A DNA stretch of 63,967 nucleotides from Elsinoe ampelina. Lineage: Eukaryota. Each line of letters starts with the position of its first letter. Within the stretch, counting starts at the first letter, position 1. The stretch spans positions 1 through 63,967 of the forward strand of contig ML992531.1 of assembly GCA_010093995.1 (NCBI GenBank), given 5' to 3'. A model generated the notes under the pieces. The model was not told where the DNA came from, did not search any database, and saw nothing but the letters and a program-made list of their open reading frames with translations. Positions 42,529 through 50,913 of the stretch are shown piece by piece. The position numbers were made by a program, and so were the translations under genes.

Positions 42529-45500
42529 ATGACTTCGAACGAGCGCCGTCATGACAGTCGCCGTACATCAGCATTGTTTCACAATGGCCGAGAGCAAAGA
42601 CTCGAACATATTCGACCTTCGAAGTTGATTCTGAAACGTCCTGCCACAAGACTGCCTTGGCTTGACGGCGGCGCAAGCTCTCGCAGCATCCCAGGTCAAT
42701 TCGGCACCGAGCTCAGCGATCTCACGGAAAGTAATGCATACCCTAGCGGCACGTCCAGCAGCCCAAACTTGCTCGATCGATCGCCTGTCCCGAAGCCACG
42801 CTTGTCCATTGGCAGCCTACCAGACGTACCCGGCTCGTTCACACGAAAGGGTGGAGAGTACACACCTTCGACCTACAGCGGTAAGCACAGAATCGACAAA
42901 GATACCGACAGTCAGCATTCATTGTCAAAGAAGGATGCTGCGTCATACGAAAAACTTGTCGATCGCCCATTTACTCTGCTCGATCGTGCAGAAGCTCCTG
43001 CGATTCCACCAAGGACATCCAGCAGCACCCATGATGTACCAGAGACCGGAGATATCGGCCTCAGTGCCATTCCACGCACGAGAAGCTTCGACGGCAATTT
43101 GTCTTCAGACGCTCCATCTGTCAAGAAACCCTCGCAACAACATCACCGCCGACATGCACCGTCGACTGTATCTCAATTGGCTGTTCCCCGCGCACCCACA
43201 ACCTTGCAGCCAGTGTCGATGCGCGACACCATGTCAAATCTTCGAAGTCTCATGTCAGAAGCGATGAAGGTGGCTGAACAGGCGGAGAGGCAGAACAGGA
43301 CTGAAGACATGTCTGCCATCTTTCGAGAAGCTTCGGTCGCTATGAGAAATGCCAGTCAGGTCAGCGGACAGATGAGAAGTCCTTTAGCGCTTTCCGACAT
43401 CGAGTTGGCTCCGACCAGCGAAGAGTATACTGCGGACTCCAGCTCCGATATTGGATCCGAGTCGTCAGCCTGGGACTCACCCAGGAGAAAGCACATGTCC
43501 AACGAGACTATGCCGACTGAGTACTCGGCCAGTGTACCATCTGTTGGCAGTCCCCGTGTCAGCTCTCCATTTGCCGACCCTTCAAAGAGGCCATCAACAT
43601 CTTTGGGAAGCCAGCTTAAGATCCCGACTATTGCCGACCAGGTATCAGAAGGCGAGATCAGTCCGGGGACAGTACCAGAGAAATCAAAGAGTACTCAACT
43701 AGGTCTTCCGGATGCCCTTCAGAGACTGCATCAACCTCCGTCAGCCGACTCGATCATCATCGACTTTGCCTATGTTGAGCGACAAATTGGCGCGCCGTCT
43801 GGCAACCTTTCGCCGGTGATAAAGTCGAGACCACACCATCGCAACAAAAGCTTGAGACCCAGCGTGCCAGAACGAGACATGGACGTCAACCCCGAGGATG
43901 TCACGCAAGTTCCGATCAGGCCGAAGACCAGCGAAGAACCTGTCCCTGCACTAACGTCTATTCTTCCTGAACCAATATCCGAACCACGAGTAATAAGCGG
44001 TAGCGGTCCCAAGCGTCGAAAGCCACGCAAGGGCAGCACTCGTCGATCGCCCTATTACGAGGTCCCCGATCAGGCCCCCGTTGAGAGGGTACCGACCAAT
44101 CGAGAGACAGTCATCATCCCAGTGCCAGTTCCTGAAGCGCAAGTACCACCACAACAAGTCGTGAACATCACGGTCGGAGGAGGAGATCCTGGAGATAACG
44201 ACAACGTCAACCGAACGAAGAAGCTCAAATACAAGCGGCGACCAATCGCGAGGGAATAGGGAACCCTTCGCAAACGCATCACCGCCATCATTGCGTGCAT
44301 CAACACTGCTCTGATCGGTCTCATTGCTGGCATCTATGCTGGAGAAGTTCCCAAGATCCAGTATCAGCTCGCCGACATGAATCATCGGGTTATCCTCGGT
44401 AACGTCTTCTTCTACATTGGACTCGGAATCAGTACACTGATTGCCTGGCCATTACCATTGCTGCATGGTCGAAAGCCGTACATTCTGGTCGCACTCGCGC
44501 TGACGCTACCACTGCAATTCCCTCAAGCCATTTCTGTCAGCCAATTCCGATCACCAGACAGACGGTGGTATGTCGCTCTACTTCTGCCCAGAGCTGTCAG
44601 CGGACTCGTCTTGGGTTTCGCCAACGTGAACTTTCTGGCGACACTCCTGGACTTGTTCGGCGCATCCTTACAATCTCATCATCCACATCAAGAGATCGTC
44701 ATTTACGATGACATTCGGCGTCAAGGCGGGGGTGTCGGCCAATGGCTCGGTCTGTGGTCGTGGTGCTTTGTTGGGTCACTCGCAGTTGGCTTCCTGATTG
44801 GTGCAGTAATCACAGCCCGCCTACCTCCTGCTTGGGGCTTCTACTTTGTTGTCATCCTTCTGGCTGTCTTTCTGCTCATGAACATTGTGGCACCAGAGAC
44901 TCGGCGCTCGCCACACCGACGATCTATTCTGCATTACTTTGATGAGGAGGACAATCTGCAGCGGAAGATCGCTCGCGGAGAAATCAAGCTCCACTTGGCT
45001 CAGGATGGTCCGAAGTATTGGTGGGAAGAGGTATGGGCAGGGTTGAGGCTGATGCTTTACATGGTATCTCAAGCCGGCTTTGCAATACTGGCGCTATACT
45101 TGGCGTGGATATACGCGCTTGTGGTGCTGGTCACGCTGGTAAGTACCATGTCCGCCACAGTGGAGGTTCCGGTCACTGACAACATTTCAGCTGCTTAGTG
45201 CGCTATTGTCTACAAATTACCTGTGGCGTCCACAATATGTCGGTCTGGGTGTTTTCGCCTTAGCAGTCGGCGCTCTACTGGCAGTACCCCTTACGAGAGC
45301 CAACATGCTGTCTCGCGATCGAGTTGAGCCCGTCAGGACAGACAGCATGACTTTCCAACCCAGAGTGACATGGTCGTCTCATCTTGTACGCCGATGTATC
45401 TTCACTTTTGCCCTGCCACTTGCTGGCCTCGCCTTCACCTTGACCTCGCCCGGCCCAAGTCTCAATTGGGCGGCACCTACCGTCATGAGCGCGCTTGTGG

Positions 45501-46063
45501 GCTTTCTCGCAGTGCTTGCCATTGCTGAATGTGTGGGACTCACCATGGAGACCTACGATACCTGTGATCTCCAACCCGGTGCAAACTCCAAGCACCGTTT
45601 ACAATCTATGGACAGTCAAACCCGCCGACGCCGCACCAACTACTCATGTTTCCCTCGCGTCATTGCAGGCCTCTTCGCCTCTCAAGGACTCGGCTTCTTC
45701 CTCGCCGCCGCAGCCACCGGCGTAAGTGGACGCATCACCCGGGCTCTCGGCGCCCAAGCCGCCGTCGGAGTTGTCGCCGGCATCCTCCTATTCCTCACCA
45801 TCCTTCTCTCGCTCATCCTATGGCGTTTCCGCACAGTTCAAGTCATCCCCAACCACGCATTTGGTACTCGAAAGGGTACGAAGGAATGGACGGCTGACGA
45901 CGACGACAAGTTCTGGAAGCCCGTCATCGTGGGTAATCCGTCTGGAAAGGTCAGGAGGATGAATTTGCTGGAGACGGGCAAGTGGAGCAGGTGGACTGAG
46001 ATAAGGAGGATGAACAAGTTGGTCAAGCCGGGGACGTGGGAGGTGCAGTATGGGAAGAAGTGA
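42529..46063 (+). CDS. Large MFS membrane protein (AMD1-like architecture) with in-frame TAG at 44257-44259; intron 45139-45190; 5' end uncertain
   Basis: ~575-aa disordered N-terminus, then PIARE*GTLRKRITAIIACINTALIG..IYAGEVP, WPLPLLHGRKPY and multiple TM helices; the frame continues across the TAG. Confidence 0.82.
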
Positions 46064-46365
46064 TGTAGTCGGATTTCTGCGGGCCTTAGAGGAGCCTGAG
46101 AATTGATCTATTGACGCTTTACAATGGTGCTCTGCTCTGGTTCTTGCAAATCTAGTCTGCTTTCCTGAAGCCATCCAAAAGTGCGGGCTGCGACTGCCTC
46201 ATGCATGTCGCCTGTATACAATTCCTCAACCATCGAACATGCGCACCCTCTGATACACTACCAAACAATCCTTCCCACGACAGTCCTTACAGAGCAGACT
46301 TTTACAGAGCAGTCATTACAAAACACTCTCCGCCGAATCCTCCACCGAAGCCTCCGCTGAGGAAC

Positions 46366-47531
46366 ATGTCCCTCCAACGCCCCCAACAACTCGCCTCGAC
46401 CACGACAGACGAACACACAGGCGGCACCACCCTCTCCTCCCTCTACGGACACTACCACCACTCGCCCACCTCGACATGGCAATCGAGGACGGGAGCACAG
46501 CACAAGCGTACCGGAGCTGTAGCGCATGCCGTGATGGGCGACGTGTGTGGGGCCAACGCGATGATGAAACATACGGCGGGGACAGGAGGTGAGATTAGAC
46601 ACTTCTTTTTTTTTCCTTTTTTTGCGGATGGCGAGAGATCGACCGTGGATCTACTGTGTCTCTGGGTGAGAGTGGGGAGAATACTGATGGGGTGCTGATC
46701 ATGGCAGCTCGTTCGCCGGGTGCGCTCCCGCCGGGGACGCCTGGTGGTGTCACTTCACCTTCAGCTCGATCCGTACGGTCGCATGTGATGGGGTACCAGT
46801 CTGCGGTTATCCCGCCTGCGCTGAGGAGTCCGCCGACGTTGCCTCCTCGTGCGCCTCGACCTCTGGTGGTGAGACCCGAATGTGTCCCTGGGCGAAGGAC
46901 GGGTGGGGTCGAAGGTGTGGGGAGGCAGGTCTCGGCGCCGGGGCAGGTGTACACGCCCTCTTTCTATGGGGGTTCTCTGTCGTATGGGCGGACGACGTCG
47001 TTGTTGGGGCTCACGCCACGGCCGAGGAGGGATGTGTGCGAGGTGTTGGAGCTGGCGGAGATGATGAGATCTGGGCCGAAGGAGCTCGTAGGGAAGATGG
47101 TGATGGATAGTGCGGGTGAGGGCGAGGTGCGGCAGGGTAAGAAGGCGAGGCCGAGAGGTGTCTATCTTCCTCCGAGCATGTCGGCGCCTGTGTTCGGCAG
47201 TCCTGCGTCAGGGCCTACTCTGGTGTATTCTCCTGCGAAGCTGGCATCGTCGAGTACAGGCGGGAGCGCTCCAATGCCGTCATCGACTGGGACGAGATCG
47301 AGTCCATGTTCGCCGGAAAGAGCAGGTCAGGGTTTCAGCACCTTTGCTACTGTTGAGATGGGCGATGAGGCTGGACTGGACAGCACGATTGTGGAAGAGC
47401 GGGGAGCACAGAGGCGAATGACGCCGAGGAAGTAGATATTCCTTGCTGGTGGAGTAGCGCTGGTGTTGCTCGTCGTTGCTATCGCTGTGGTCGTGGCGTG
47501 GCGGTTCACGCCGAGGCCTGGTCGGGCCTGA
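46366..47531 (+). CDS. Orphan Pro/Ser-rich protein with C-terminal TM anchor behind an in-frame TAG (47433-47435); intron 46589-46707
   Basis: A GTGAGA..CTGAT..CAG intron joins two ORFs in phase; after RRMTPRK-TAG the frame reads IFLAGGVALVLLVVAIAVVVAWRFTPRPGRA-TGA. Confidence 0.6.
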
Positions 47532-47621: not shown

Positions 47622-48053
47622 TCACACTTTCTCTCCTATCCTGCGCTTCGGTAACGTCCATGGCTCAGCACAGACGACTTCTCCTTCCGTGTAAGCCCAG
47701 AAGTACACCGCCGTCGCAACCATGTAATACACCGCCGGATTCGTCGCCTGGTAGAGTAGCACACTCGCCATAGCAGCCAGTGGTAACCAGAACAGCCTCA
47801 GCTCGATACTCCCATGTATCGACGTGCCAGCCAGTAGCGGCAGTGGCCACTCGTATGCCAGACTCAGCAATGCGATGCCGAGATTGATCGTCTGGAGGAT
47901 GGGCCAGGGCTTGACGGCGCTATCGAGGGTTTTGGTCAGGAAATCGAAGAAGAATTTTGGCCAGAAGAAGGACTCGACTGCTGCGGCGAGCTGGTATGTG
48001 GCGGCGGTGAGGACGATGAGGCGCGCCCAGTGGTTCTTGATGAGCTTGCCCAT
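47622..48053 (-). CDS. noxD: NADPH oxidase subunit NoxD/Pro41 (p22phox homologue)
   Basis: MGKLIKNHWARLIVLTAATYQ..FFWPKFFFDFLTKTLD.AVKP.PILQ, EWPL, LYQATNPA, EGEVVC.EPWTLP. Confidence 0.9.
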   Translation of the reverse strand: MGKLIKNHWARLIVLTAATYQLAAAVESFFWPKFFFDFLTKTLDSAVKPWPILQTINLGIALLSLAYEWPLPLLAGTSIHGSIELRLFWLPLAAMASVLLYQATNPAVYYMVATAVYFWAYTEGEVVCAEPWTLPKRRIGEKV

Positions 48054-49186: not shown

Positions 49187-50913
49187 ATGTCTTCGGACAG
49201 GCGTTTCTGGCGCGCACAATTCAGACCTCGGAAGCTCACCTTCTATCTGCTATTCCATGGCTTTCATGTCGGCATCTTCATCCTGGGCTGGTGGAAGCAA
49301 GTAACAGACAACCGGCTTGCTGCCCTCAACACGCTCAACTTCTCGGTCTGGTTCTCGCGCGGCGCCGGACTGGTACTCTCCGTCGATGTCCTGCTTATAT
49401 TACTACCCATGTGCCGGAATCTTCTGCGCATAGTCCGCCCCAAAGTACGGTATTTGCCACTGGACGAGTCGCAGTGGTTTCACCGGCAGTGTGCGTATTC
49501 GCTGCTCTTCTGGACGATTGTGCACACTGCTTCGCATTACGTCAATTTCTTCAATGTTGAGCGGTTTCAAATTCGACGAGAGGGTGCACTTCAGATCCAC
49601 TATGCCCAGGCCGGCGGCATCACGGGTCATGTCATGCTGTTCTGCATGTTCATGATGTACACGACTGCACATCACAAGATTCGACAGCAGTCGTACGAGA
49701 CGTTTTGGTATACGCATCATCTGTTCGTACCGTTCTTGCTGGCAATGTATACGCATGCTACTGGATGCTTCGTCAGGGACAGCGTGGAGCCATACTCGCC
49801 TTTTGCTGGGAAGAACTTTTGGCAGCATTGCATCGGCTATCAAGGCTGGAGATGGGAGCTCGTTGGTGGAGGTATCTATCTGGTCGAACGGATATACCGC
49901 GAAGTCCGCGCTCGAAGAAAGACCGAGATCATCAAAGTCGTCAAGCACCCCTATGGTAAGCCTACCCCAACGCCCTACCGGAGCAACACTAACCTCCACC
50001 AGACGCCGTAGAAATTCAATTCCGCAAGCCCTCCATGACCTACAAACCGGGCCAATGGCTCTTCCTCAACATCCCCTCCATCTCCGCCCACCAATGGCAC
50101 CCCTTCACCATCACCTCCTGCCCCTTCGACCCCTACATCTCCGTCCACGTCCGCCAAGTCGGCGACTTTACGCGCTCCCTCGCCGACGCTCTCGGCGCCG
50201 GCACCTCCCAATCCGAACTCTACGACGCCCTCGACCCGCTAGGCATGTACGAAGTCGCCCTCTCCAACGGCCAAGAGATGCCTGCCCTGCGCATCGACGG
50301 CCCCTACGGCGCCCCCGCCGAAGACGTCTTCGAGAACGAAGTCGCCGTGCTCATCGGCACCGGCATCGGCGTCACCCCCTGGGCCAGCATCCTCAAGAAC
50401 ATCTGGCACCTGCGCCTCAGCCCGAACCCGCCCAAACGCCTCCGCCGCGTCGAATTCATCTGGGTATGCCGCGACACGACGAGCTTCGAGTGGTTCCAAG
50501 CCCTCCTCAGCAGCCTGGAAGAACAGAGCCTCGAGCTCTCCCACCCGGACGCGGGCGGGGACGGGGTCGAGGTCCTGCGCATCCACACCTACTTGACGCA
50601 GGCTTTGGACGCGGACACGGCGCAGAATATCATCCTGAACAGCGTGGGGACGGAAAAGGATCCGTTGACGGAGCTGAGGAACAGGACGAATTTCGGACGG
50701 CCGGATTTGAAGAAGTTGTTGGGAGGGATGAGGGAGGGGTTGGTGAGGGGGGATTATTTGGGGGAGGAGTTTGCGAGGGAGAGGGCCGGGAGGGGGACAG
50801 AGGTGGGGGTTTATTTCTGTGGGCCGAGTAATGCTGCCAGGCAGATCAGGAGGGCGTGTAAGGAGTGTACGGGCGACGGGGTCAAGTTTAAGTTTTGGAA
50901 GGAGCATTATTGA
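49187..50913 (+). CDS. noxA: NADPH oxidase A (Nox1, gp91phox homologue); intron 49956-50002
   Basis: Short N-terminus (NoxA type), heme His motifs (WFHR, VHTASH, YTHHLF), QWHPFTITS, IDGPYGAP, IGTGIGVTP, VYFCGP, FWKEHY. Confidence 0.96.

Follow-up and report, generated by a model that had tools for sequence, protein, structure and literature searches.

The window analysed here is a 63,967-nt stretch of DNA from the grapevine fungus Elsinoe ampelina (contig ML992531.1), which carries on its + strand a two-exon gene for an orphan protein. Exon 1 (46366..46588) comprises 74 codons plus one base, starts with MSLQRP and includes the conserved block DEHTGGTTLSSLYGHY. It is followed by a 119-nt intron (46589..46707) of the form GTGAGA...CTGAT...CAG, in which CTGAT is the branch motif, and this intron is confirmed by the annotated E. 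ampelina protein P0003 (BDZ85DRAFT_322953, 371 aa, 100% match to the window), which reads ...TGTG-A-RSPG, with the junction at the A between GTG and RSPG. Exon 2 (46708..47432) encodes a disordered region rich in Pro, Ser, Thr, Gly, Ala and Arg with 12 S/T-P sites, and its 3' end encodes the invariant sequence RMTPRK, after which the frame is closed by a TAG stop codon (47433..47435; the candidate edited A is 47434). Beyond this stop the same frame continues as a tail (47436..47531) of 31 sense codons (IFLAGGVALVLLVVAIAVVVAWRFTPRPGRA, 47436-47528) and a TGA (47529-47531); the tail encodes a 22-residue membrane helix, IFLAGGVALVLLVVAIAVVVAW, and the terminal residues RFTPRPGRA.

Two further features of the + strand surround the TAG. 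The minimum-free-energy fold of the RNA contains a hairpin (47425..47445) with a 7-bp stem (CGAGGAA/TTCCTTG) and a 7-nt loop (GUAGAUA), and the repeat comparison revealed a 17-nt direct repeat, of which copy 1 (47413..47429) encodes RRMTPR and copy 2 (47500..47516), 82% identical to copy 1, encodes WRFTPR. On the opposite strand a convergent gene (47622..48053, - strand) codes for a 143-aa protein of the PRO41/NoxD family (DUF7727), as identified by Pfam and by its named relatives. The first-pass annotation had described the region as RRMTPRK-TAG-tail-TGA converging on noxD about 90 bp away; the sequence, including the A at 47434, is as it described, and the neighbour ends at 47622, 90 nt past the TGA, while the intron had gone unmentioned.

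The start codon at 46366 is favoured over the annotated ATG at 46201, since in the alignment the E. fawcettii ortholog begins at the Met equivalent to ATG 46366 and the N-terminal extension of the E. batatas protein resembles a different E. ampelina frame (ORF 46181-46360). Judging from these comparisons, the annotated N-termini of E. ampelina and E. batatas are probably over-extended, and the region 46181-46365 resembles a conserved 5'UTR more than it does coding sequence. In practical terms, none of the three annotated Elsinoe proteins includes the tail, and two of the three N-termini are probably too long. The GC skew flips within the gene, from -0.47 at 46200-46349 (C-rich) to +0.55 at 47000-47149 (G-rich).

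The convergent neighbour (47622-48053) matches DUF7727 with an E-value of 2.4e-48 over profile positions 1-139 of 139, which makes it a full-length member of the family, and it has 961 relatives at E-values of 1e-10 or lower, several of them named PRO41, which we take to be identical with NoxD. The 3'UTR of this noxD-type gene must overlap the tail region. An extra antisense noxD exon over the tail was considered and rejected, as the 143-aa protein is covered to 94-100% by the 120 relatives listed (139-188 aa). About 1.1 kb from the PRO41/NoxD gene and divergent from it lies a gene for the catalytic subunit of an NADPH oxidase (49187-50910, + strand; domains Ferric_reduct, FAD_binding_8 and NAD_binding_6), and it is possible that the oxidase and its small membrane partner share a promoter region. 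On the other side of the orphan gene, two adjoining long ORFs at 44377-46063 (+ strand) show weak similarity to MFS_1 (25.8 bits, below the cut-off) and to a holin-like family (E-value 0.0047); several segments that rank among the most hydrophobic in the window fall within them, and the two ORFs are probably exons that belong to a single gene for a membrane transporter. The contig itself begins with an AT-rich block (positions 1-2000), with a GC content of 0.345 compared to 0.50-0.59 elsewhere.

The orphan protein and its relatives

Searches of 5.8 billion and 1.84 billion sequences identified three proteins of this kind, all of them from Elsinoe. The word-index search reported only those of E. 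ampelina and E. batatas (P0004, KVT40_007470; 64% identity), and the exhaustive search of 1.84 billion representatives contributed the E. fawcettii protein as the sole addition (P0005, D9617_58g048320; 185 aa, half the length, with 45% identity over the matched part). A search with P0005 as the query recovered only P0005 itself and no further homologs, the Pfam search of the orphan protein matched no family, and a metagenome scan yielded 94 pattern matches, none of which is a relative. The designation of the protein as an orphan in the first-pass annotation is in full agreement with these results, which confine it to three Elsinoe proteins without a Pfam family.

The three orthologs are similar in composition, with 56-60% of Pro, Ser, Thr, Gly, Ala and Arg and 10-15 S/T-P sites. 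In the canonical proteins, i.e. those ending at the stop codon, the highest 19-residue Kyte-Doolittle mean is just 0.52-0.96, hence none of the three contains a membrane segment, and the mean pLDDT of the model of P0003 in the ESM Atlas is only 0.36. Both results conform to the earlier description of the protein as soluble and disordered. The structural look-alikes found in the ESM Atlas (scores not above 0.76, TM-scores not above 0.31) were dismissed as noise. The alignment of the orthologs reveals few invariant blocks, one of which is formed by the six C-terminal residues RMTPRK; the T-P-R-K at the C-terminus fits the CDK consensus.

A membrane helix encoded behind the stop codon

The most hydrophobic segment of the whole window is encoded by the tail. 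Its 19-residue Kyte-Doolittle mean of 3.08 is the top value of 73,777 stop-free windows of this size in six frames over 64 kb; the second-highest value, 2.89, belongs to the upstream ORF 45206-46063, whose only Pfam hit is a weak, holin-like one. In the extended form of the protein (P0001), the mean of 3.08 is found at residues 243-261 and the remainder does not exceed 0.93. Besides the tail, four segments of the + strand reach at least 2.5, all of them within long ORFs, and three of these four sit in upstream ORFs with weak MFS or holin-like Pfam hits. AlphaFold2, run on the extended form in the single-sequence mode, predicted a helix at residues 239-266 as the sole confident element, with block-mean pLDDT values of 88-97 over residues 241-270 and below 50-60 elsewhere. 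The "textbook" transmembrane helix that the first-pass annotation had placed after the stop agrees with the Kyte-Doolittle analysis and with the AlphaFold2 model of the extended form. The tail also displays a strong codon periodicity: among the 22 codons of the membrane segment, G occupies position 1 in 14 and T occupies position 2 in 14.

A trivial explanation for such a segment would be base composition, i.e. that the G/T-rich 3' end of the gene reads as hydrophobic by chance, and the 3' half of the gene is indeed strongly G-rich, with a GC skew of up to +0.55. However, when the 93 nt of the tail were shuffled, the value of 3.08 was reached in 0 of 20,000 mononucleotide shuffles and in 1 of 20,000 dinucleotide shuffles, and even a mean of at least 2.5 was reached in only 0.03% and 0.125% of them, respectively. 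Moreover, the same DNA is not hydrophobic in its two other frames (YSLLVE followed by a stop, and IPCWWSSAGVARRC), and no other segment of the window attains 3.08. The top rank of the tail and the rarity of shuffled sequences that match it argue that the tail is a real coding sequence and not a chance reading of a 3'UTR; the earlier judgement that it is "unlikely for random 3'UTR" can now be expressed as rank 1 of 73,777 and as a frequency among the shuffles of at most 1/20,000. The six-frame ranking and the shuffles bring the explanation by chance close to refutation, and we find it barely credible.

The codon-usage score gave no distinction between the tail and non-coding frames; exon 2 itself also scored about 0, and the ORFs used for training overlap each other. 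The tail could not be interpreted as a separate small ORF, as it contains no ATG. The two copies of the direct repeat are identical at 14 of 17 positions and lie in frame, 87 nt (29 codons) apart, so that they flank the stop codon and the membrane segment; they may reflect the repetition of a motif, or they may be left over from an ancient insertion or duplication event. Altogether, the analysis supports the view that the post-stop segment genuinely codes for a membrane helix and continues the reading frame of a soluble disordered orphan protein.

Age of the stop codon and variation between lineages

The C-terminal RMTPRK is found at the same place in all three annotated orthologs (E. ampelina, E. 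batatas and E. fawcettii), which come from different projects. The stop position is therefore conserved among the relatives in 3 of 3 annotated orthologs, as is typically demanded of readthrough genes. Since three orthologs with no more than 45-64% identity and with large indels between them share the RMTPRK end, the stop position is old and not a private mutation of one genome.

The data sets compared at the locus (X3, X4, X6 and X7) all consist of DNA contigs in which the intron is present. One of them, X3, bears the same organism label and is identical at the TAG region, with a word depth of 153. A second lineage (X4, X6 and X7), also under the same organism label, has 95.4% identity, with 83 differences over 1801 nt in an alignment that covers the tail; it carries 81 substitutions, and among the 40 of these 81 that were listed, the last one is at 47408. 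The 30 listed changes in exon 2 comprise 12 synonymous and 18 non-synonymous ones, which corresponds to a pN/pS of about 0.56 on the listed part and suggests that the constraint on exon 2 is weak, as expected for a disordered orphan. Among the variants listed, indels occur in the intron only. The 3' half of the intron (46650-46699) is hypervariable between the lineages, with 10 substitutions and 1 insertion in 50 nt, compared to about 4% in exon 2.

Could the tail be a dead relic? An ancestral tail-anchored protein may have lost its anchor through a nonsense mutation, in which case the tail would be an undecayed remnant that is never translated. This explanation requires no unusual mechanism, it is in line with the clearly coding origin of the tail, and the gene evolves fast, as indicated by the 12 synonymous and 18 non-synonymous changes listed in exon 2. 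On the other hand, the stop position is common to three species whose proteins retain only 45-64% identity and differ by large indels, and a remnant of that age should exhibit stops, frameshifts or polar residues, whereas the tail encodes the best hydrophobic helix in 64 kb. The conserved position could also be reached by three independent nonsense mutations at one codon, which is very unlikely. We consider the relic explanation improbable. A neutral relic should have decayed, and the tail has stayed open, free of indels and ideally hydrophobic behind an old stop, which argues that it is still in use; by elimination, selection most likely still acts on the tail, which would then be translated in one form or another.

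A probable gene with two products

The arrangement described above would be explained by a gene that produces two isoforms, one soluble and one membrane-bound, and we regard such a gene as probable. To the main reading, namely that the tail is functional and is reached by some kind of bypass of the stop codon, we assign a probability of roughly 0.6. According to this model, termination at the UAG would yield a soluble disordered protein, rich in S/T-P sites and ending with RMTPRK, while bypass of the UAG would add 31 residues, comprising the hydrophobic helix of 22 residues and a basic C-terminal stretch (+3). The extended form would become a tail-anchored membrane protein, with its disordered, S/T-P-rich part exposed to the cytosol.

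The tail-anchored architecture is proposed because the extended form lacks a signal peptide and any hydrophobic segment besides the helix; the predicted protein has a single helix near its C-terminus, as is characteristic of tail-anchored proteins. The helix ends with a Trp, which is followed by RFTPRPGRA with a net charge of +3, and its flanks are basic. The slightly favoured route to this form would be A-to-I deamination of A47434 by Tad2/Tad3, which would convert UAG to UIG, read as Trp, and the hairpin would serve the deaminase as a mimic of a tRNA anticodon stem-loop (7-bp stem, 7-nt loop, U33-A34). The full model, with the editing of A47434 included, is put forward as a tentative one.

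Possible routes past the stop codon

Ribosomal readthrough would be one route: in a small fraction of ribosomes a near-cognate tRNA (Gln, Tyr or Lys) would decode the UAG, and the unedited mRNA would give rise to a minor tail-anchored isoform. The anatomy of the gene and the argument from conservation apply to readthrough in the same way as to editing, and a weak G.U-rich hairpin begins 9 nt past the stop. The sequence UAG CAR YYA is a leaky stop context, and a purine at position +4 usually favours termination. The context found here, UAG-AUA-UUC (TAG ATA TTC in the DNA), matches neither UGA CUA nor UAG CAR YYA, hence it is not a known leaky context as expected for programmed readthrough, and it has a purine at +4. 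Besides, readthrough leaves the strong hairpin unexplained, as the stop codon is in its loop and the structure would be melted by the ribosome. Readthrough calls for no special machinery, and its use for dual localisation in fungi is documented (PMC4207609); weighing all this, we regard it as a possible but rather unlikely route.

The stop codon could also be removed by alternative splicing, if an in-frame intron ended at a TAG/N acceptor (47435 or 47457) and thereby joined the membrane segment to the upstream sequence. In-frame candidates are available, for instance from G/GTAAGA at 47137 to the TAG at 47457 (321 nt) and from GTGAGA at 46869 to the TAG at 47435. However, a CTRAY branch motif located 6-45 nt before the acceptor is present in 0 of the 86 in-frame GT/GC...AG candidates, while the real intron of the gene has CTGAT. 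Wherever the donor is good, the candidate would remove 100-190 codons, among them blocks conserved in the three species, and a 45-nt candidate has the poor donor GTGGAA, at a place where E. fawcettii has no Val codon. This makes splicing a very unlikely explanation. As to suppression of the stop by a dedicated tRNA, the 64-kb window contains no tRNA gene.

The editing route is suggested by the structure around the stop codon. The fold of the 61-nt segment 47404-47464 places G-U-A-G-A-U-A in a 7-nt loop between the stem arms 47425-47431 and 47439-47445, in such a way that A47434 is loop position 3, directly after a U; the U-A at loop positions 2-3 has the U33-A34 geometry of the tRNA anticodon loop. 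Among the 1116 TAGs of the window, this geometry is associated with a stem of at least 7 bp in 4 cases and of at least 6 bp in 8 cases, counts that are post hoc, as the anticodon-loop geometry was defined after the fold had been seen. A stem of at least 5 bp is found for 15 TAGs, and among these only the TAG at 47433 terminates a long ORF, with 278 open codons upstream and 31 downstream. Two results weigh against the hairpin: with a looser definition (any loop of 4-8 nt, stem of at least 6 bp), 8% of the TAGs qualify, and the z-score of the 61-nt fold is only -1.46.

The features by which stop-loss editing sites are recognised, i.e. a UAG with U at -1 (here AAG-TAG-ATA) and an A in the loop of a hairpin, are both present. 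According to passages of PMC11156358, A-to-I editing in fungi favours an A that follows a U and lies in a hairpin loop, and owing to this preference it often removes UAG stop codons; passages of the same paper and of PMC13123824 attribute the reaction to the tRNA deaminase Tad2/Tad3. The Elsinoe hairpin can be described as a site compatible with this type of editing. In Fusarium graminearum, 403 stop-loss genes were counted according to PMC13123824. It speaks against the editing route that most of the stop-loss extensions described so far are disordered, destabilising tails and not membrane helices.

The taxonomic distribution is less encouraging. In the passages of PMC11156358 and PMC11087585 that deal with the occurrence of A-to-I mRNA editing, it is documented only in Sordariomycetes and in one Pezizomycete (Pyronema), Aspergillus nidulans and Botrytis cinerea gave negative results, and the Ame1-Tad3 interaction required for editing is said there to have originated in Sordariomycetes. 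A limited literature search found no case of mRNA editing in Dothideomycetes. For Elsinoe, editing would therefore be structurally attractive and taxonomically unprecedented, and we treat it as a possible rather than a probable form of the bypass.

The earlier proposal of a switch by stop-loss editing or read-through fares unevenly under this analysis: the anchor is in frame, the stop is not a private mutation, the site is compatible with editing, and a known leaky readthrough context is absent. The most specific version of the editing route, namely that Elsinoe edits UAG to UIG at a mimic of the anticodon loop and in this way switches a soluble protein into a tail-anchored one, appears unlikely when taken as a whole.

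Comparison with known systems

The closest analogy to the editing route is the stop-loss editing of Sordariomycetes (e.g. FgDBF2; Tad2/Tad3 with Ame1), which shares with the Elsinoe gene a UAG with U at -1, an A in a hairpin loop and an in-frame extension. The machinery behind such editing consists of sexual-stage Tad2/Tad3 isoforms and an Ame1 that binds Tad3. The differences are that Elsinoe is a Dothideomycete, i.e. belongs to a class without reported mRNA editing, and that its predicted extension is an ordered hydrophobic helix rather than a disordered destabilising tail.

A different analogy is provided by fungal peroxisomal enzymes, in which, as described in PMC4207609, a PTS1 signal is hidden behind UGA CUA and exposed by readthrough. 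The two cases are alike in that a localisation signal is placed in frame behind a conserved stop codon, so that one gene can serve two destinations; they differ in the stop context (UAG AUA UUC in Elsinoe, UGA CUA in the peroxisomal case), in the signal (a tail anchor versus PTS1) and in the protein (an orphan versus a metabolic enzyme).

Membrane helices in extensions have been predicted before in an animal: in Drosophila, according to parts of Dunn et al. 2013 (PMC3840789), ribosome profiling revealed 8 readthrough extensions with predicted transmembrane domains, and as in Elsinoe the helix is predicted in the post-stop part only. Our literature search found no fungal case of a readthrough extension with a membrane segment. 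The Drosophila examples, in the account given in those parts of the paper, are animal genes with footprints, for which insertion into the membrane was not demonstrated, whereas the Elsinoe extension is predicted from the sequence and follows a stop position conserved in the genus. As a candidate described from its DNA sequence, and one whose stop lacks a known leaky context, the Elsinoe gene is assigned neither to stop-loss editing nor to programmed readthrough.

The fate of the extended protein need not be a membrane. PMC10364623 describes how hydrophobic tails encoded by 3'UTRs route readthrough products to degradation by the BAG6/GCN1 quality control, and the extended Elsinoe protein, which also has a hydrophobic C-terminal extension past the stop, could simply be degraded in the same manner. 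Such tails, however, are by-products of non-coding composition, while the hydrophobicity of the Elsinoe tail exceeds what its composition provides, and the tail possesses the interface Trp and the basic flanks of a real anchor.

If the extended form is a genuine product, its closest structural relatives would be the ordinary tail-anchored proteins. Those have a single membrane segment at the extreme C-terminus and are inserted post-translationally by the GET pathway. The extended form resembles them in having one 22-residue helix that ends 9 residues before the C-terminus, and differs in that its anchor lies behind a stop codon and not in the ordinary reading frame. To our knowledge, the anchor of the tail-anchored proteins described so far is always within the ordinary reading frame.

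Implications

Should editing of this site prove true, A-to-I mRNA editing would be known for the first time from a class other than Sordariomycetes and Pezizomycetes, and a stop-loss edit would for the first time append a membrane anchor instead of a degron. Fungal mRNA editing would then reach a third ascomycete class, and the Elsinoe site would represent a compact natural mimic of the anticodon stem-loop. If, on the contrary, the tail is not used, the case shows that a tail resembling coding sequence can be well preserved downstream of a stop codon.

Until now, the signals linked to fungal recoding have been peroxisomal ones in the case of readthrough and destabilising tails in the case of editing. 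Provided that the Elsinoe tail is used, recoding would here give access to a signal of a new kind, namely a membrane anchor that follows a stop conserved within the genus, and a single stop codon would determine whether the protein is cytosolic or fixed to a membrane.
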